Positions 14,066 through 21,343 are shown, numbered from the stretch's first letter. The stretch: 64,000 nucleotides of DNA from Longimicrobiales bacterium (GCA_965211905.1 CBDBTX010000002.1:820248-884247), one strand, 5' to 3'. A program made the numbers and translations. Notes: generated from the sequence alone by a model not told the origin.

Positions 14066-14986
14066 TCAGGCCAGCCCGGCCACCAGCAGCTCGAGCAGCG
14101 CCTCGGGGTTCTCCGTGTTCACCCAGTGCCCGCCGCTGACCTCGTGCAGGAAGACTTGCCCGGTACCGCGCGCCGCCCCCCGGATGCGGTGCCCCGCCGC
14201 CTCATCCAGCACGCTCGACCCCAGCGCCCGGATGAAGTGGAGATCGGTCCCGGCCGGAGGACTCTCGGCCACGTCCCAGGCATCCGTCCGGAAGTAGTCC
14301 CGCAGATAGGCCTCCATCTCGTCCGGGTCGAGGCGCCACTGCAGTCCGGCGTCGGTTCGCACCGCGTTGATGGCCATCCAGTTCGCCACCAGCGGCGGGA
14401 ACCCCTCCGACGCCACCGCGTCGACCGCCTCGGCGCGGCTCCCGAACGGGCCCGGATGCCGCCGGAGCATTCCCAGCATCCGCCAGGCGCCGCCCCCGGG
14501 CCGGCCCCCGCTCGGTGACGAGTCGACGATCCAGAGCTGAAGGCGCGCGCCGGCGCCTCGCTGGAGCCCGCCCGTCTCGTGCCGGAGCCCGCCCGCCCGC
14601 TGGAGCCCGCCCGTTCGCTGGAGCCCGCCGCCGTCCGGCCCGCCTTCTTCCGGCCCGCCGCCGCCCCCCCGCTGCCGCGCATACACCAGCGCGACCTTCC
14701 CCCCGAACGAATGCCCCAGCACGGCGTCTGCCGGGCGGCCGAGGTGATCCTCCAGACTCAGCAGGTCGGCCGCGCAGCAGTCGATCGTATGCGGCGCCAG
14801 CCTGGGCGACTGCCCGTGCGAGCGCAGATCCACCAGCACGACCCGCCACTCGGGCCGGGCCCGCACCAGGCGGCGCGCGATCGTCCCCCAGTTCCTGCCC
14901 GCGCCGTAGATTCCGTGCAGGAGCAGCATCTGCCGCCTCGGCGCCGAACCGGGTGCCTCAACGATTTCGTGGTGCAAGGTGGCCAT
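14066..14986 (-). CDS. Alpha/beta-fold hydrolase with an internal Gly-rich tandem-repeat insert
   Basis: ATG at 14986. LLLHGIYGAG oxyanion region, nucleophile elbow GHSFGG, C-terminal VSGGHW. The insert GGLQRTGGLQRAGGLRHETGGLQRG follows the elbow. Confidence 0.8.
   Translation of the reverse strand: MATLHHEIVEAPGSAPRRQMLLLHGIYGAGRNWGTIARRLVRARPEWRVVLVDLRSHGQSPRLAPHTIDCCAADLLSLEDHLGRPADAVLGHSFGGKVALVYARQRGGGGGPEEGGPDGGGLQRTGGLQRAGGLRHETGGLQRGAGARLQLWIVDSSPSGGRPGGGAWRMLGMLRRHPGPFGSRAEAVDAVASEGFPPLVANWMAINAVRTDAGLQWRLDPDEMEAYLRDYFRTDAWDVAESPPAGTDLHFIRALGSSVLDEAAGHRIRGAARGTGQVFLHEVSGGHWVNTENPEALLELLVAGLA
14557..14640. repeat. Imperfect 18-21-nt tandem repeat inside the hydrolase coding sequence
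   Basis: There are three GCTGGAGCCCGCC units plus one GCCGGAGCCCGCC variant. On the minus strand they encode GGLQR-type peptide repeats. Confidence 0.75.
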
Positions 14987-15040
14987 GGAGTATGTTATCA
15001 CCGTGCGCGGCATCCTCCGCGCCGGCACGCCACCCATGGG

Positions 15041-17317
15041 ATGACAGACGACGACGTGAAGCGGACGCGAACATCACTCTCTGCCGGAGCCCTGCTGGCC
15101 GCCTCGCTGGCGATACCGGGCGGCCTTCACGGCCAACTCCGCCCTCTGCAATCCTCACCCGACTCCCCGATCACCATCCCCCGCCTTTCGGGCGAGATCG
15201 TGCTGGACGGCGTCGTGGACGAGGCGGCCTGGGACGAACTCGCGCCCTTCGAGATGACCATGTATCAGCCCAACTTCGGCGGCGCGCTCACGGAGCGGAC
15301 CGAGGTTTGGGTGGCGCACGACGACAGCTACCTCTACGTCGCGGGACGGATGTGGGACTCCGACCCCGACGGGATCCGGACGGGGACGTTCTACCGCGAC
15401 CAGTACAGCGGCGACGACATCCTGTCGGTGATCATCGACAGCTACAACGACTACGAGACCGCGGTCTGGTTCACGGTGAATCCGTCGGGAGTGCGCCAGG
15501 ACCGGACGGTCTCGAACGACGCCGAGTTCACCAACGGCATGCCGATGAGCTGGGACTGGAATTCGTACTGGGACGTGGTCACCACGCAGACCGACGAGGG
15601 GTGGTTCGCCGAGTTCCGGATTCCGTTCTCGACGCTGGGCTTTCAGGTCACCGGCAACGAGGTGGAGATGGGGCTGATCCTCTACCGCGCGGTGGCCCGC
15701 AAGAACGAGCGCCAGACCTTTCCGCCGATCGAGCCCAGGTGGGGACGTCTGGGGTTCGCCAAGCCGTCGAGAGCGCAGCGCGTGGTGCTCCGCGACGTTC
15801 AGCAGTCCGCACCGGTGTACCTGACACCGTTTACGCTGGGCGGCTTCAAGCAGAATCCGGTGCTCGCCGAGCCGCCCGAGGTGCCGCGGGCCGAATGGCG
15901 GACTGAGCGGGACCCCACCACCGAACTGGGGCTCGACCTCAAGTACTCGCCCACCTCGAATCTCGCGCTCGACCTCACGCTCAACACCGATTTCGCGCAG
16001 GTCGAGGCGGACGATCAGCAGATCAACCTGACCCGCTTCGCGCTGTTCTTTCCCGAGAAGCGGCAGTTCTTCCAGGAGCGCGCCTCGACCTTCGACTTCA
16101 ACACGGGCGGCATGTTCAACCGGCTCTTCCACAGCCGCCGGATCGGGCTGGACCAGGGCGAGATCGTCCGCATCTACGGGGGCGCTCGGGCGGTGGGGCG
16201 CTGGGCAGGCACCGACTTCGGCTTTCTCAGCATGCAGACCGCCCCGCACGGCGACCTGTCGTCGGAGAACGTCGGCGTGTTTCGGCTGCGCCAGCAGGTC
16301 ATCGACGACTTTTCGAGCGTCGGCGGCATGCTGACCACGCGCCTCGGGTCGTCCGGGCGCAACAACACCGCCTACGGCCTTGACGCGGTCATCCGGTGGT
16401 TCGGCTACGAATACCTGATCTTCCAATGGGCCCACACCTTCGACGAGGCGGCCGATCAGGCGGGCGGACTGGAGTCGGGGCTCGGGAGGGTCCGGCTGGA
16501 GCGCCGCCGCGACGAGGGGTTCTCCTACTACGCCGAGGGGATCCGGGTGGGTGAGGACTACCTGCCGGGCCTCGGTTTCCAGCTGCGGAAGGATTTCACC
16601 TACGGCGGCGCCCAGCTGCGCTACCGGCAGTTGCGGGACGACTCGTCGCCGCTCCTCGCTCGCGCGCTGCAGATCAGCACGGCCCAGTACTTCCGCAACG
16701 CGGACCGGACCGCCGAGTCCCGCGAGATCAAGCCCGAGATCGAGTTCGATTTCCGCGACGGGTCCAACCTGACCGTGGGGGCGCTGTCGAGCTTCGAGAG
16801 CGTGCGCGAAGCGTTCCCGATCTCGGACGTGGTGATTCCGGCGGGCGAGTACTGGTTCCACGAGGCGACGGCCATGCTCAGGTTTCCGCGCAGCGACCTC
16901 CTCCGGGGCGATTTCGAGGCCTCGGTGGGGAGCTTCTACGGCGGCAGCCGGGTCAGGCTGTCGCTGAAGCCCGTGTGGGTCGTTTCGAAATTCCTGGAAC
17001 TGGAGGCGGGCTACGAGGTCAACCGCCTGGACTTCGCCGACCGGGGGGTCGCAACCACCGCCCAGCTGGGAAGCCTGAGAGTCAAGACGGCGCTGAATCC
17101 CAAGGTGTCGATGAGCACCTTCGGCCAGTACAACGGCGCCACCGACCAGACGAGCCTGAACGTGCGCTTCCGCTATCACTTCCGCGAGGGCACCGACCTC
17201 TGGATCGTCTACAACGAGGGCTTCAACAACGTGCGCGACGACGGGCTGGGGCCGCGGCGTCCGCTGTCGTCGGGGCGGGCGCTGCTGGTGAAGTACTCGC
17301 ATACGTTTGCGAGGTGA
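15041..17317 (+). CDS. DUF5916 / carbohydrate-binding family 9-like secreted protein
   Basis: ATG at 15041. Signal peptide, then ITIPRLSGEIVLDGVVDEAAWDE and YLYVAGRMWDSDP, which are typical of CBM9/DUF5916. A long beta-rich C-terminal region follows. Confidence 0.7.
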   Translation: MTDDDVKRTRTSLSAGALLAASLAIPGGLHGQLRPLQSSPDSPITIPRLSGEIVLDGVVDEAAWDELAPFEMTMYQPNFGGALTERTEVWVAHDDSYLYVAGRMWDSDPDGIRTGTFYRDQYSGDDILSVIIDSYNDYETAVWFTVNPSGVRQDRTVSNDAEFTNGMPMSWDWNSYWDVVTTQTDEGWFAEFRIPFSTLGFQVTGNEVEMGLILYRAVARKNERQTFPPIEPRWGRLGFAKPSRAQRVVLRDVQQSAPVYLTPFTLGGFKQNPVLAEPPEVPRAEWRTERDPTTELGLDLKYSPTSNLALDLTLNTDFAQVEADDQQINLTRFALFFPEKRQFFQERASTFDFNTGGMFNRLFHSRRIGLDQGEIVRIYGGARAVGRWAGTDFGFLSMQTAPHGDLSSENVGVFRLRQQVIDDFSSVGGMLTTRLGSSGRNNTAYGLDAVIRWFGYEYLIFQWAHTFDEAADQAGGLESGLGRVRLERRRDEGFSYYAEGIRVGEDYLPGLGFQLRKDFTYGGAQLRYRQLRDDSSPLLARALQISTAQYFRNADRTAESREIKPEIEFDFRDGSNLTVGALSSFESVREAFPISDVVIPAGEYWFHEATAMLRFPRSDLLRGDFEASVGSFYGGSRVRLSLKPVWVVSKFLELEAGYEVNRLDFADRGVATTAQLGSLRVKTALNPKVSMSTFGQYNGATDQTSLNVRFRYHFREGTDLWIVYNEGFNNVRDDGLGPRRPLSSGRALLVKYSHTFAR

Positions 17318-17355
17318 GGGGGGGGCGTGCCGCCACTGGCGCCCGGTTTGTCAGG

Positions 17356-17591
17356 GTTTTCCCGTTCGGGTAAACTTGGTGTCCAACGGCTTGCTCCACG
17401 GCTAGTTTTCCCGTTCGGGTAAATCCGATGCCTTCCGCAACGTCTCAGAGAGTTGTTTTCCCGTTCGGGTAATTCAACGGGTTTGACTGAGGTCGCGTGC
17501 TCTGTCATTTTTCCCGTTCGGGAATGCGCTTTGGATGAGAATTGAGGTCCCAAGGCACAGACCCGGCAGACATTGTTTTCCCGATCGGGAA
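17356..17591. promoter_or_regulatory. Array of five GTTTTCCCG(T/A)TCGGG(T/A)AA palindromic repeats upstream of hipB (putative HipB operators)
   Basis: The repeats start at 17356, 17405, 17455, 17508 and 17575. The core is TTCCCG-NN-CGGGAA and is a perfect palindrome in the last two copies. The last copy ends 6 nt before the hipB ATG. Confidence 0.6.
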
Positions 17592-17597
17592 GGGGCT

Positions 17598-17891
17598 ATG
17601 CAAATGACGCCTGCGGAAATTGGACGCATCGTGCGGGTTGCCCGACGGGCACAGGGTCTCCGCCAGGATCAGTTGGCGGGGGCCGCCGGTGTCGGCGTCC
17701 GTTTTCTGTCGGAACTCGAGAGAGGCAAGCCGACCGTGCGGTTGGAGAAGATGCTTGCGGTGCTCGATACCCTCGGGTGCCGGATCCTCATCGAGATGCC
17801 TCCCGGCGAAGCCGCGCCAGGTGAAGAGGCCGCGGAGCGACCCGATGCTCCGAGCGGCCGCGGCCCGACGCCGGGTTGGTCCTCGGAATGA
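17598..17891 (+). CDS. hipB: HipB-like XRE-family HTH antitoxin
   Basis: The ATG at 17598 is in frame inside ORF 17535..17891. HTH segment RAQGLRQDQLAGAAGVGVRFLSELERGK. Its stop overlaps the hipA start (ATGA). Confidence 0.8.
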   Translation: MQMTPAEIGRIVRVARRAQGLRQDQLAGAAGVGVRFLSELERGKPTVRLEKMLAVLDTLGCRILIEMPPGEAAPGEEAAERPDAPSGRGPTPGWSSE

Positions 17892-19192
17892 CCCGCTCTC
17901 TCATCGTCCGGTGGGGCAGCTCGGTTGTCGGTCGCCTTGCCCTGGATCGACACGGTGCGATGCGCTTCACCTACAACGGCGAGTGGATCGAGGACACCGC
18001 GGCGCCACCGATCTCGTTGTCGCTGCCCAAGCAGCCGCAGAGCTTCAGCCGGCGCCTTTGCCTGCCGTTCTTCGAGGGGTTGTTGCCGGAGGGTGCTCAA
18101 CGCGATGCCGCCGCTGCGGCGCTTGGCGTGTCGGCTTCGAACACCTTCCGTCTACTGGCCGGGCTCGGAGCGGAGTTGGCGGGTGCGCTCACCCTGCTGC
18201 CCGACGACGAAGAACCGGGCGGCACGGCGGCGGGTGGGGCGCCCGAGCCTCTCTCGGATGACGAACTGGTCCTGCTGCTGGAGACGATCCGGACCCGACC
18301 GTTTCTGGCTGGTGCCGCGCGGGGACCCGGGCGCATTCCGGGGGTCCCGGGGCGAGGCCTGCGGATGTCGTTGGCCGGAGGCCAGTCCAAGCTGCCTGTT
18401 GTACTGGTCGATGACCGCGTCGCGCTTCCCGCACCCGGGCAGCCGACCACGCACATTCTCAAGCCGCCGATCCCCGACCTCGACGCCGCTACCGGGAACG
18501 AGACCTTTGCGATGCGCCTTGCGGCGCGCATGGGGTTGGCGGTCGCACCGGTGCGCCCTGCAGTGGTGGCCGGCAGGACGTACCTGCTGGTGGAGCGGTA
18601 CGACCGACGGACTGCCCCGGACGGGTCGGTGGAGCGGCTGCACCAGGAGGACTTCTGCCAGGCGCTCGGGATCGTACCAGACAGGAAGTACGCGTCGGAC
18701 GGAGGTCCCGGGTTTCCACAGTGTTTCGAATTGATCCGCCGGGTCTGCACGCGTCCCGCAGGAGACGTGCTCGGGTTGCTCGATGCCGCGATCGTCCAGG
18801 TGCTGCTCGGCAACGCGGACGCCCACGGAAAGAACTACAGTCTTCTCCGAACCCGGAGTGGCCAACTGGGGCTGGCTCCGCTCTACGACCTTCTGTCGAC
18901 CATTGCCTATCCGCGCTACTCCCCGCGGTTCGCGATGAGCATCGCGGGCCGCAGAACCCTGAAAGAACTGCGGCGCGGTGACTGGGACCGGTTCGCGAGA
19001 CGGTGCGGATTGGGGCCGCGGTTCGTCCGGCAGCGTGTGGCGGAGCTGTGTGCCGCGGCGAGCGAGGCGGGTGGTGCGGTGGCGACGGAACTCACGCTGC
19101 CCGGACTTCGGGAGGAGGCACTTGTGAGCCAGGCCGAGCTGGTCGCGAAGCGGGCGGCACGCCTGGCCAACACGGTGGTGCAAAACCCGTGA
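17888..19192 (+). CDS. hipA: HipA-family serine/threonine kinase toxin
   Basis: N-terminal coupling domain (FFEGLLPEG), LAGGQSKLPV, and a catalytic GNADAHGKNYSLL motif. Confidence 0.9.
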   Translation: MTRSLIVRWGSSVVGRLALDRHGAMRFTYNGEWIEDTAAPPISLSLPKQPQSFSRRLCLPFFEGLLPEGAQRDAAAAALGVSASNTFRLLAGLGAELAGALTLLPDDEEPGGTAAGGAPEPLSDDELVLLLETIRTRPFLAGAARGPGRIPGVPGRGLRMSLAGGQSKLPVVLVDDRVALPAPGQPTTHILKPPIPDLDAATGNETFAMRLAARMGLAVAPVRPAVVAGRTYLLVERYDRRTAPDGSVERLHQEDFCQALGIVPDRKYASDGGPGFPQCFELIRRVCTRPAGDVLGLLDAAIVQVLLGNADAHGKNYSLLRTRSGQLGLAPLYDLLSTIAYPRYSPRFAMSIAGRRTLKELRRGDWDRFARRCGLGPRFVRQRVAELCAAASEAGGAVATELTLPGLREEALVSQAELVAKRAARLANTVVQNP

Positions 19193-19203
19193 TCCGCACG
19201 TCC

Positions 19204-20439
19204 ATGCGACGTTCCCAGGGGCCGCTGTTGGTCGCAGGCTTTGTGGTTCTCTCCGCGCTCTTTGCAGTGCCGGCCCTGCGCGACGCCGCCACCCATCAAC
19301 CCTTCCCCCCCGCCACCCTCCACCACCCGCCCGGCTACCTCCTCGGCGCGCCCCTCTTCGGCCTCTGGGACACGCTGTCCCGTCTCACGGTGAGTCAGCA
19401 CTACGCGGTGCTGGCGACGGTGATCGTGCTGTACCTCGCCCACCGGCTCGTTGCGGCCCGCGCCCCACGCCGCCGCCTCGCCCGGGAAGCCCTCCTCGCC
19501 GTCGGCGCCCTCGCCGCCCTGCTCGCCTTCTACGCGGCCGCCGCCCTCATCCCGCGCCCCATGGCCGCCATCCGGCTGGCCGACCCCGACCTCGTCGCGG
19601 TGGACTTCCATTCGCACACCAACCGCTCCCACGACGGGTGGTCCCTCTTCACGGCGGCCCGCAACCGCGCCTGGCACGAAGCCGGCGGCTTCCACGCGGC
19701 CTACGTCACCGACCACTACACCTGGGCGGGTGTCGACGATGCCCTGCCCGAGAACCCCGCGCGCGCCAGCGACCGCACGGTGATGCTCAGCGGCATGGAG
19801 GTACGGCTGCGCAACCGCCACACCAACATCCTCGGCGACCGCGACCGCTACGTCTTCGCGCTCGACAGCACCTGGCACCACCTCGACCCGGACTCGATCG
19901 CCGCCGCGTACCGCCGCGGCGCGGCTCCCCCGACCATGCTGTACGCGCTCCCCGGCCCGCTCGACCAGATTGTCGCGCTCGGGCCCGGTTCCCCGGCCGG
20001 CGTCATCGGCGTCGAGCTCAGCGACGGCGCGCCGCGCGGCCTCGAGCAGGTCCGTTCGCAACGGCGCGAGATCCTTGCCCTCGCCGACTCGCTCGATCTG
20101 GCGGTGGTGGCAGGCACCAACCTCCACGGATGGGGACGCACCGTCGCGGCCTGGAGCGTGATGCGGCTCCCCGGCTGGCGCGACATGTCGCCGGACGAGC
20201 TCGGCAGCGCGATCGAGGGTGCCCTGCACCGGGAACGGCGCCGGGCGGTCACGGTGGTGGAACGTCCGATGCCGTACCACGAAGGGTCGGCGATCAAGCT
20301 GGTGGCCACCGTGCCGCTGCTGCTATGGTCGCACTTCCTCACCCTGACACCCTGGGAACGCGCGTCCTGGCTGGCCTGGTGCGCGATCTGGGCCGCCGTG
20401 CGGGTTCATCGTGTCGGCGGCCACACCCGAGCCCAGTGA
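19204..20439 (+). CDS. Membrane-anchored PHP/CehA-like metallohydrolase (putative)
   Basis: N-terminal TM segments followed by VAVDFHSHTNRSHDGW, a PHP-type HxH..D motif. A GTG at 19189 is an alternative start. Confidence 0.55.
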   Translation: MRRSQGPLLVAGFVVLSALFAVPALRDAATHQPFPPATLHHPPGYLLGAPLFGLWDTLSRLTVSQHYAVLATVIVLYLAHRLVAARAPRRRLAREALLAVGALAALLAFYAAAALIPRPMAAIRLADPDLVAVDFHSHTNRSHDGWSLFTAARNRAWHEAGGFHAAYVTDHYTWAGVDDALPENPARASDRTVMLSGMEVRLRNRHTNILGDRDRYVFALDSTWHHLDPDSIAAAYRRGAAPPTMLYALPGPLDQIVALGPGSPAGVIGVELSDGAPRGLEQVRSQRREILALADSLDLAVVAGTNLHGWGRTVAAWSVMRLPGWRDMSPDELGSAIEGALHRERRRAVTVVERPMPYHEGSAIKLVATVPLLLWSHFLTLTPWERASWLAWCAIWAAVRVHRVGGHTRAQ

Positions 20440-20442
20440 CCC

Positions 20443-21039
20443 ATGACCACCTTCACCGTCTACCTCCGCCTCGGCTTCGAGCACCTCCTCGACCTCCAGG
20501 GGTACGACCACATCCTCTTTCTCGCGGCGCTGTGCGCGGCCTATTCGCTCACGCGGTGGCGCGAACTGCTCGTGCTTGTGACCGCTTTCACAATCGGCCA
20601 TTCGGTCTCGCTGGCACTGGCCACCCTGCGGCTGGTGCGGGTCGACACCGGACTCGTCGAGTTCCTCATCCCGGTGACGATCGTGGCCACGGCGGTGGTG
20701 AATCTGGTGGCAATGCGGCGCGAGGATCCGTCCGAGCACCGGGTCTCCGCACGCCCCGCCCGCTACGCGCTTGCGCTCGTCTTCGGCATCATCCACGGCC
20801 TCGGCTTCTCCAGCTTCCTCCGCCTGGTGCTGGGCGAGGAGCGCAACATTTTCCTGCCCCTGCTGTCGTTCAACGTCGGGCTCGAAGTCGCGCAGATCGT
20901 GGTCGCGGGGGCGGTGCTGGCGCTGGCGTTTGCGGCCACCCGCGGGCTTCAGCTGTCGGACAAGGCCTGGAATGTCGTGTTGTCGGTCGTGACCGGGGCG
21001 ACGGCGGCCTGGATGGCGGTGCAGCGGCTGCCGGTGTGA
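20443..21039 (+). CDS. HupE/UreJ-family membrane protein
   Basis: 198 aa and multi-TM. N-terminal GFEHLL..GYDHILFLAALC and GIIHGLGFS motifs. Confidence 0.75.
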   Translation: MTTFTVYLRLGFEHLLDLQGYDHILFLAALCAAYSLTRWRELLVLVTAFTIGHSVSLALATLRLVRVDTGLVEFLIPVTIVATAVVNLVAMRREDPSEHRVSARPARYALALVFGIIHGLGFSSFLRLVLGEERNIFLPLLSFNVGLEVAQIVVAGAVLALAFAATRGLQLSDKAWNVVLSVVTGATAAWMAVQRLPV

Positions 21040-21041
21040 GG

Positions 21042-21125
21042 TTGGCGCCAGGAACCTGGAAGAGTATCCTCAAACAGGCGAGACTACGGCCTGCAGGTGG
21101 GACTACGAATGGAGGGATTTCATGA
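21042..21125 (+). pseudogene. hicA toxin remnant (only the C-terminal ~27 codons remain)
   Basis: The frame that ends in a TGA overlapping the hicB ATG (ATGA) reads LAPGTWKSILKQARL. This matches the conserved HicA C-terminus (pGTlrsIlkQAGL). The 5' part is replaced by the end of hupE/ureJ. Confidence 0.55.
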
Positions 21126-21343
21126 CATACGCGATCGTCATTGAGCCAACCGACAACGGTTACTCGGCCTACGCCCCAGACCTTCCAGGATGCGTCGCCG
21201 CCGCGGACTCCTACGAGGACGCAGAGAAGCTGATCCGCGAGGCGGTCGTCTTCCATCTCGATTCCCTGCGCGAGTACGGTGACCCGGTTCCCGAACCCCG
21301 CACTGGTGTCGGGTCGGTGGAGGTGGAAGCAGCCTCACCTTAG
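21122..21343 (+). CDS. hicB: HicB-family antitoxin (short form, no DNA-binding domain)
   Basis: MTYAIVIEPTDNGYSAYAPDLPGCVAAADSYEDAEKLIREAV is the typical HicB N-terminal fold sequence. Confidence 0.85.
   Translation: MTYAIVIEPTDNGYSAYAPDLPGCVAAADSYEDAEKLIREAVVFHLDSLREYGDPVPEPRTGVGSVEVEAASP

Follow-up and report, generated by a model that had tools for sequence, protein, structure and literature searches.

What reads a row of five closely similar palindromes in front of a toxin-antitoxin operon, and how did there come to be five of them? The question is raised by a 64,000-nucleotide stretch of DNA from a Longimicrobiales bacterium (GCA_965211905.1, CBDBTX010000002.1:820248-884247; this whole stretch is hereafter called the window, and positions are counted from its first letter), in which the palindromes stand directly upstream of hipB and hipA, the genes of an antitoxin and a kinase toxin. 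HipBA is the founding persistence module, and to our knowledge the architecture of its promoter has been dissected in three systems only, each with a different operator. We hold it to be very probable that the five palindromes are HipB operators that autoregulate hipBA, a reading that the first-pass annotation of this stretch had put forward for HipB or the HipA-HipB complex and for which comparative genomics now argues. What appears to be new here is a three-site ground plan of predicted operators of the type TTCCCG-NN-CGGGAA, expanded to five.

A repeat scan of the window returned a single repeat family, with 21-nt copies at five positions (17356, 17405, 17455, 17508 and 17575); the cores of these copies (TTCCCGNNCGGGWA) start at 17359, 17408, 17458, 17511 and 17578. 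Scanning with the 14-bp core pattern (TTCCCGNNCGGG(A/T)A; consensus TTCCCG-NN-CGGG(A/T)A) and at most one mismatch gave 10 strand-matches, i.e., the five sites on both strands, and no further core match elsewhere in the 64 kb; shuffled sequence is expected to give 0.94 matches, and none of 100 shuffles got to 10. Several copies of one palindrome are therefore found directly 5' of hipB, enriched over chance:

17359..17372, no strand, predicted operator site 1, TTCCCGTTCGGGTA; an extra distal site, 49 bp before site 2
17408..17421, no strand, predicted operator site 2, TTCCCGTTCGGGTA; corresponds to the distal member of the canonical triplet described below
17458..17471, no strand, predicted operator site 3, TTCCCGTTCGGGTA; corresponds to the middle site of the triplet, 11 nt before the putative -35 element
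17511..17524, no strand, predicted operator site 4, TTCCCGTTCGGGAA; overlaps the putative promoter and corresponds to the proximal site of the triplet
17578..17591, no strand, predicted operator site 5, TTCCCGATCGGGAA; an extra site in the putative 5' leader

The five palindromic repeats that had been noticed before hipBA are thus borne out by both scans, and some details of that description had to be corrected. The repeats had been given as an 18-nt motif recurring at spacings of 49, 50, 52 and 68 bp; the start-to-start spacings from site 1 to site 5 are 49, 50, 53 and 67 bp, and the exact 18-mer GTTTTCCCGTTCGGGTAA is present in sites 1-3 only, sites 4 and 5 differing from it at three positions each. 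The last two copies had been called perfect 14-bp palindromes, which is true of site 5 (TTCCCGATCGGGAA), the sole such palindrome among the five, but not of site 4, in which the 6-bp arms match perfectly and flank TT, a centre without self-complementarity; one arm mismatch (GGGTAA) is present in sites 1-3. The final copy does adjoin the ribosome-binding site, as had been reported, the right arm of site 5 overlapping the Shine-Dalgarno-like sequence.

Tandem Repeats Finder detected no tandem repeat at the array, and the spacers are unique and unrelated to one another, only the motif recurring. A recent origin of the 50-bp units by tandem duplication was rejected on these grounds, and any duplication must be ancient. 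The array is no assembly artefact, since unitigs from three independent public runs span 17295-17687 with 0 differences (none of the matching runs has a recorded library type, and to judge from the evenness of their depth they are metagenomic DNA). A minor form was also seen in two of the runs (X1 and X2), in which 17318 is joined to 17405 with ACGTG between them and site 1 is missing; its depth was about 10, compared with about 130-220 for the main form. It belongs to a co-occurring strain or close relative, and the number of operators is therefore polymorphic in the community sampled.

The genes that follow the array begin with:

17588..17595, plus strand, Shine-Dalgarno-like sequence GGAAGGGG, read off the sequence, 8 nt before the ATG at 17604
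17604..17891, plus strand, hipB, XRE-type helix-turn-helix antitoxin of the Y4mF family, 95 aa (Pfam, NCBIfam), with an alternative start at ATG 17598
17888..19192, plus strand, hipA, full-length HipA serine/threonine kinase toxin, 434 aa (Couple_hipA and HipA_C)

HipB contains the Pfam domains HTH_3 and HTH_31 and matches the NCBIfam model TIGR03070 (couple_hipB) with 72.2 bits (cut-off 71.65); the ATG at 17604 is its likelier start because the homologues begin at MTPAEIG. The nearest solved HipB structure is that of Legionella (HipB(Lp), 8EZT, E = 8e-10), and the HipB proteins of E. coli and Shewanella were undetected by phmmer at E <= 0.01. The hipA product matches PF13657 (Couple_hipA, 1.5e-23) and PF07804 (HipA_C, 1.8e-50), and its nearest entry in the PDB is E. 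coli HipA (2WIU, E = 1e-36); an exact look-up of the HipA sequence found no recorded protein identical to it. In the alignment with 2WIU (SLAGGQSK/SVAGAQEK, DAHGKN/DGHAKN, PLYD/PFYD), the P-loop Ser, the catalytic Asp of the DxHxKN motif and the Mg-binding Asp of the YD motif are all kept, as is the Gly at the position of G22 in E. coli (hipA7). The ATG of hipA overlaps the stop codon of hipB (ATGA, 17888-17891). With the HipA domains, the kinase motifs and a translationally coupled helix-turn-helix antitoxin gene upstream all present, the downstream operon is, as far as its predicted products tell, a hipB-hipA type II toxin-antitoxin module with an intact toxin gene.

Related loci were approached from two sides, the DNA motif and the protein. 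In the motif-first scan, exact TTTTCCCGWTCGGGWA was searched in 185,579 species genomes (596 Gb), which yielded at least 120 loci; most of these are single chance matches (about 1000 are expected by chance, by our estimate). Among the matches listed, 16 loci encode hipB and/or hipA right beside the motif, and every array with at least two sites 45-50 bp apart adjoins hipB-hipA on the upstream side (one Brevundimonas hipBA locus has two sites 97 bp apart). These loci range from Alphaproteobacteria to Gammaproteobacteria (Sinorhizobium, Bradyrhizobium, Endobacterium, Brevundimonas, Sphingomonas, Burkholderiaceae and a gammaproteobacterium) and include Treponema, Solirubrobacterales, another actinomycete, Bryobacteraceae, Palauibacter and Longimicrobiales, i.e., hipBA-linked arrays are present in Alpha-, Beta- and Gammaproteobacteria, Spirochaetes, Actinobacteria, Acidobacteria and Gemmatimonadota. 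Their typical layout is three sites at 49-50 bp, the last directly before hipB.

In the protein-first scan, metagenomes were searched against an alignment of HipB homologues, and 80 loci were chosen blind to the DNA motif; the scan used two helix-turn-helix peptide patterns and therefore samples HipBs with that recognition helix. Among the 69 loci that have at least 250 bp of upstream sequence, the motif is again found at 49-50 bp in nearly every family member: 53 loci have three sites, six have four, three have two, six have one and a single locus has none. No locus of this set has five. Of the 140 intervals, 75 are 49 bp, 60 are 50 bp (together 135) and five have another length. The array of the window had been called unusually long, and it is: three sites are usual (53/69), four are rare (6/69), and the five-site layout was found only in the window and two close orthologs (98% and 88% HipB identity). 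In most protein-first loci, the aligned HipB start follows the first base of the proximal core by 13-23 nt, and in canonical triplets the proximal site is about 6-10 nt before the start codon. Past the scanned regions upstream of hipB, the loci supplied another 149 kb of downstream sequence, in which only six weak matches to the motif were found.

Motif arrays are kept in more than 60 related loci, on both plasmids and chromosomes. In the unique triplets the spacer columns are nearly information-free while the length of the spacer is fixed, which indicates a constraint on geometry and not on sequence, and where fourth sites have been added (L128, L185 and L123) they lie on the same lattice. 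The dipeptide RF is retained in the recognition helix of every HipB that shares the motif (35-75% identity), whereas the Legionella HipB has TV at this place, and this supports covariation of recognition-helix residues with operator type. Taken across the loci compared, the predicted ground plan is a TTCCCG-NN-CGGGAA triplet on a 49-50 bp lattice, family-wide across many phyla. The window departs from this plan: its sites number five, their intervals are 49, 50, 53 and 67 bp, and about 80 nt separate the putative promoter operator from the start codon. The triplet itself is contained in it as sites 2-4, one of the two intervals being lengthened to 53 bp.

Which of the five sites corresponds to which member of the triplet depends on the promoter. 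In canonical triplets, a TGGACA/TTGACA-like hexamer is located about 6-8 nt past the middle site, an A/T-rich -10-like hexamer (TATATT, CATAAT etc.) adjoins the proximal core on its left side, and the GGGAA arm of the proximal operator occupies the expected position of the ribosome-binding site; transcription would, on this geometry, begin inside the proximal operator. We scored the best -35/-10 pair abutting a site (out of 12), with the middle sites as a control of the same geometry, and obtained a mean of 8.3/12 at proximal versus 6.0/12 at middle sites of the 45 unique triplets. In the window, site 4 alone reached 8/12 (TTGACT-17-CATTTT), and sites 1, 2, 3 and 5 scored 5-6. TTGAC is invariant in 7/7 aligned Gemmatimonadota orthologs, and the rest of that spacer diverges. 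The candidate promoter elements are:

17483..17488, plus strand, putative -35 element TTGACT (from the invariance of TTGAC and the geometry test)
17506..17511, plus strand, putative -10 element CATTTT, overlapping the left edge of site 4, with a 17-nt spacer from the -35 element
17348..17376, plus strand, promoter-like TTGTCA-17-TAAACT, enclosing site 1 (consensus match, 9/12)

The score of site 4 together with the invariant TTGAC places the promoter at site 4, which we consider reasonably likely. With the promoter there, sites 2-4 would be the triplet, site 1 would have been added distally and site 5 in the leader, where it would lie over the Shine-Dalgarno sequence in a putative leader of about 85 nt. 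A second, upstream promoter is possible at TTGTCA-17-TAAACT, the lone sigma-70-like match of a generic scan in 17200-17700; its TTGTC is present in L201 and L121 and deleted in L203. A promoter in the spacer between sites 4 and 5 was rejected, as there is no acceptable -10 element at 16-18 nt from TTGGAT or TTGAGG and site 5 scored 6/12.

To follow the array within its own lineage, syntenic orthologs were found through their HipB proteins and then scanned for sites and for hipA (identities are those of HipB, followed by the number of sites, the intervals and the state of hipA):

window: 5 sites; 49, 50, 53, 67 bp; hipA intact
L201 (98%): 5 sites; 50, 50, 53, 67 bp; hipA intact
L202/L203 (88%): 5 sites; 52, 50, 51, 66 bp; hipA intact
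L208 (80%): 4 sites; 49, 50, 66 bp; hipA largely intact
L204/L205 (80%): 4 sites; 50, 50, 65 bp; hipA cut to 80 aa
L121 (75%): 4 sites; 50, 45, 51 bp; hipA intact, leader site absent
L209 (76%): 3 sites; 50, 50 bp; hipA remnant
L210, L122, L068 (74-76%): 3 sites; 50, 64-65 bp; hipA cleanly deleted
L206 (77%): 1 site; no interval; hipA remnant

The distal fifth site is limited to the two closest lineages (site 1 is present in L201 and L203). Nine related loci have a site 64-67 bp past the promoter operator, the predicted leader site, which L121 and L209 lack; judged by these alignments, the leader site with its interval of 64-67 bp is a feature of the clade. The comparison indicates that the array is one expanded from three to five sites in this lineage. 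An operator within the leader may be a specialty of the Gemmatimonadota clade, and a leader as such is not specific to it, since loci of unrelated lineages (L162-L164 and L123/L124) have a leader of 40-60 nt without an operator; in L162-L164 the sites are at -174, -124 and -74, and L123/L124 have four sites ending at -51.

Loss of hipA has occurred repeatedly in one syntenic slot of these loci, where hipB and its sites persist. Clean deletions are seen in L122 (2501-3975), L068 (7078-8000) and L210 (3001-4412), in all three of which a membrane-protein gene of unassigned function directly follows hipB, and N-terminal remnants of hipA are left in L204 (3285-3527), L209 (3357-3737) and L206 (3273-3570). 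The hipA call in L208 (3285-5231) gives a product of 648 aa, reaching into the region of the downstream gene, either a fusion or a frameshift. Loci with intact hipA have 4-5 sites and those in which hipA is not intact have 1-4, in a sample that is small and not phylogenetically independent, and relatives without hipA appear to tend toward fewer sites. The orphan HipB may now regulate the unassigned membrane-protein gene and the HupE/UreJ gene after it.

How would such an array work? HipB dimers, alone or as HipA2HipB2, are known to bind palindromic operators and to repress hipBA (PMC4150777; PMC8262856), and HipA dimerises inside HipA/HipB/operator complexes, according to the summary in PMC7029023. 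In the window, the dimeric helix-turn-helix protein HipB would bind the sites, probably as HipA2HipB2, and the bound complexes would together autorepress hipBA. Given the promoter at site 4, HipB bound there would occlude RNA polymerase; site 1 would extend the lattice by one step upstream, and repressor on site 5 might act as a roadblock over the ribosome-binding site. Neighbouring HipA-HipB complexes, which are bulky, might pack side by side and touch along the DNA; we propose this tentatively, as one possibility, because the spacing is strictly conserved and the spacer sequence is not. From the general size of HipA-HipB-HipB-HipA units, we infer that 49-50 bp is approximately their packing distance. 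Additional sites would bind more complexes and thereby tighten repression or the sequestration of HipA. At 10.5 bp per turn, 49-50 bp corresponds to about 4.7 helical turns and not to roughly five, as had been stated, and successive sites therefore lie off one face of the helix, which argues against simple looping between sites on the same face; looping, suggested at first from the spread of the sites, is not implied by a period that is non-integral in helical turns. The other suggestion made at first, an assembly of higher order, is plausible.

More speculative, and in our opinion rather unlikely, is that the lattice is a continuous filament of HipA2HipB2, one heterotetramer per operator, in which the touching HipAs hold the kinase inactive, in parallel to the HipA-HipA dimerisation at the E. 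coli promoter. If this were true, the number of operators would set the number of toxin molecules sequestered and hence the threshold of toxin release; the Gemmatimonadota lineage would have adjusted this threshold through the enlargement of its array from three sites to five, with arrays shrinking after the loss of hipA, and operator copy number would be an evolvable dial for dormancy frequency in the pan-bacterial HipBA family.

Several points weigh against the account of autoregulation by assembled HipB complexes. In the literature, we found no binding, footprint or transcript data for members that bear the motif. The protein-first set includes near-duplicate loci, its counts not being phylogenetically independent (there are 45 unique triplets). 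The intervals of 53 and 67 bp break the lattice, and the interval between sites 4 and 5 varies between 64 and 67 bp in the relatives, so that site 5 would not be part of a rigid assembly. For the promoter, CATTTT is a weak -10 element (3/6) that a stricter sigma-70-like scan did not flag, and we know of no established promoter rules for Gemmatimonadota. Finally, in Shewanella, where the operators have the same 50-bp period, isothermal titration calorimetry with HipB alone and a double-operator DNA revealed no cooperative binding to the neighbouring operators (PMC4150777); conservation of spacing need not, therefore, mean cooperative binding.

This last result also speaks for an alternative in which the HipB operators are bound independently, without any higher-order assembly, and sites 1 and 5 are near-neutral products of turnover or roadblocks (as a roadblock, site 1 would insulate hipBA from read-through of the upstream DUF5916 gene, and site 5 would block elongation or the access of ribosomes). 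The drifting distance between sites 4 and 5 is equally in its favour, as are the range from one to five sites among syntenic orthologs, the co-occurring strain variant without site 1, and the prediction of no intrinsic terminator in 17200-17700. Independent binding gives no reason for 135 of the 140 intervals, taken over all phyla, to be exactly 49 or 50 bp long when the spacer sequence is free, nor for fourth sites in L128, L185 and L123 to fall on the same lattice, and we regard it as unlikely.

That another regulator, e.g., a global transcription factor, binds the sites and hipBA merely co-occurs with them is very improbable. A motif alone does not name its binder, but these arrays move with hipB over at least six phyla and over plasmids and chromosomes, which is impossible for a host-specific factor; orphan hipB genes keep their sites after the deletion of hipA, the recognition-helix residues of HipB covary with the operator type, and the 64 kb of the window hold 0 further copies. 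Since the array follows hipB across phyla, plasmids and orphan hipB genes, HipB would be by far the most economical binder.

Just as little probability attaches to a function of the repeats at the RNA level, as the hairpins of an attenuator, a structure that sequesters the ribosome-binding site, or a small RNA. Site 5 is probably transcribed and could form a 6-bp hairpin beside the Shine-Dalgarno sequence; however, shuffled sequence folds as well as the leader does (z = 0.20, 106 of 200 shuffles being at least as good), no Rfam match was obtained even at E <= 1, two of the three sites of canonical loci are located upstream of the -35 element and would go untranscribed, and what is conserved is a palindrome with a fixed spacing in DNA and not a set of compensatory pairs. 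Repeats split by unique spacers bear a superficial resemblance to a mobile or defence element, but a repetitive extragenic palindromic (REP) element or miniature inverted-repeat transposable element (MITE), plasmid-type iterons or a degenerate mini array of clustered regularly interspaced short palindromic repeats (CRISPR) can practically be disregarded here, because the motif is undispersed in both the window and the related loci (a scattered REP-type repeat had been named as the finding that would speak against operators), the conserved unit of 14-21 nt with a 49-50 bp period is shorter than CRISPR repeats (about 23-55 nt), there is no cas or rep gene among the neighbours, and the distance from the start of hipB is fixed in unrelated phyla; membership in a CRISPR array or a REP/MITE family was rejected by unit length, neighbours and non-dispersal.

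The predicted autoregulatory array is embedded in a short run of genes. An alpha/beta hydrolase gene on the opposite strand is followed by the co-directional DUF5916, hipB, hipA, unassigned and HupE/UreJ genes; the DUF5916 gene ends 40 nt upstream of site 1. The genes downstream of hipA are:

19204..20439, plus strand, co-directional gene of unassigned function (membrane protein), starting 12 nt past hipA
20443-21039, co-directional with hipBA, HupE/UreJ gene, following the gene at 19204..20439

The gene at 19204..20439 may share the transcription unit of hipBA. The DUF5916 open reading frame was called with 912 aa (14579-17317) and overlaps the alpha/beta hydrolase gene on the opposite strand (14066-15037) by about 460 nt; its orthologs have 700-778 aa, and the true start is therefore probably well downstream of 14579. 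The match to DUF5916 is a stretch of 80 residues only, in a model of 572 positions. A run of eight Gs (17319-17326) directly follows the DUF5916 stop codon, about 35 nt before site 1, and G-runs at the same point are also found in L201, L203, L204 and L121 (alignment A2). About 80 nt past the HupE/UreJ gene, an open reading frame of 73 aa encodes a HicB-like antitoxin (21122-21343; PF15919, 2.7e-12), and L210 has the same HicB-like gene in the same place. A scan with PADLOC gave only weak generic matches, none of which was tied to a defence system. The long-form HipBs of the clade (about 92-105 aa) end in W-S-(S/Y)-E after a variable Pro/Ala/Gly-rich linker (alignment A1); this tail is WSSE in the window (17874-17888), and the short-form HipBs of other lineages (67-76 aa) lack it. 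By analogy, the tail may be the counterpart of the C-terminal segment of E. coli HipB that inserts into HipA.

Multi-operator autoregulation by HipB and evenly spaced wide arrays are already known (Shewanella, Legionella). The operator type TTCCCG-NN-CGGGAA appears to be undescribed in text, as far as we found: a text search for the motif strings returned no published paper that contains them. It is a fourth, predicted operator type and appears to be the most widespread of the four. The array of the window is the largest natural departure from the three-site plan, and the syntenic relatives, a series of 1, 3, 4 and 5 sites in which some members have hipA and others do not, constitute a natural experiment that bears on whether the number and spacing of operators control repression, the sequestration of HipA and the frequency of persisters. 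Were binding simply independent, the region would be an ordinary autoregulatory region plus two extra sites.

How, then, does the array compare with the HipB operators known from other bacteria? The parallel with E. coli K-12 (O1-O4), drawn in the first-pass annotation, holds in principle, i.e., in the autorepression by HipB or HipAB through several palindromes that overlap the promoter, and E. coli HipA is the closest solved relative of the HipA of the window, with Gly at the G22 position in both. It fails for the motif: the E. coli operators are TATCC-N8-GGATA, with tightly clustered sites, separated by only 10, 21 and 10 bp (so given in PMC4150777), and the HipBs are dissimilar at E <= 0.01. 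TATCC-N8-GGATA is absent from 17300-17600 at up to two mismatches, and its matches in the window as a whole are at chance level.

Similar in layout is Shewanella oneidensis MR-1, which has four operators, GTGTA-N6-TACAC, of 16 bp and 34 bp apart, resulting in a 50-bp period (Wen et al. 2014, PMC4150777). Like the lattice of the window, these are multiple identical, evenly spaced palindromes with a 50-bp period; one operator lies downstream, inside hipB, which loosely resembles the position of site 5 downstream of the promoter, and HipA is full-length in both, forming HipA2HipB2-DNA complexes in Shewanella. The motif and its half-site spacing differ, the HipBs are dissimilar by phmmer at E <= 0.01, and there are four sites compared with five; GTGTA-N6-TACAC is absent from the region upstream of hipB in the window at up to two mismatches. 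The Shewanella array has been studied by calorimetry and crystallography, whereas that of the window is predicted from sequence.

In Legionella pneumophila, the HipBST module has three evenly spaced operators with 53-bp gaps that were bound in electrophoretic mobility shift assays (PMC10653801). Its HipB is the nearest solved relative, the operators have 6-nt arms, the distal palindromes are imperfect like sites 1-3 of the window, and O1 overlaps the predicted promoter, as site 4 would. Legionella differs in the motif (TTACTG-N6-CAGTAA, from the oligonucleotides of the supplement), in the 53-bp gaps and in the toxin, which is split into HipS and HipT.

For Caulobacter crescentus hipBA1 and hipBA2, full-length modules like that of the window, the authors mention 'identical inverted repeats at intervals' and 'three operator sites' in supplementary figures (PMC7029023 Fig. 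S8; PMC8545095 Fig. S2G), compared with the five of the window. These repeats are probably the same canonical triplet; Brevundimonas L061, a member of the Caulobacterales, carries the TTCCCG motif, and no named Caulobacter entry was among the best 120 matches to the Brevundimonas HipB. The ground plan itself is seen in y4mF-hipA on plasmid pNGR234a of Sinorhizobium fredii NGR234, for the predicted operators of which we found no annotation or description. Its sites are at 1862, 1911 and 1960, with spacings of 49 and 49 bp, and 9 nt separate the end of the last site from the annotated ATG of y4mF. Y4mF, the namesake of TIGR03070, belongs to the same HipB family as the protein of the window (61% identity over the helix-turn-helix) and has the same motif; the locus differs in being plasmid-borne and in having three sites, with neither the leader site nor the extra distal site of the window.

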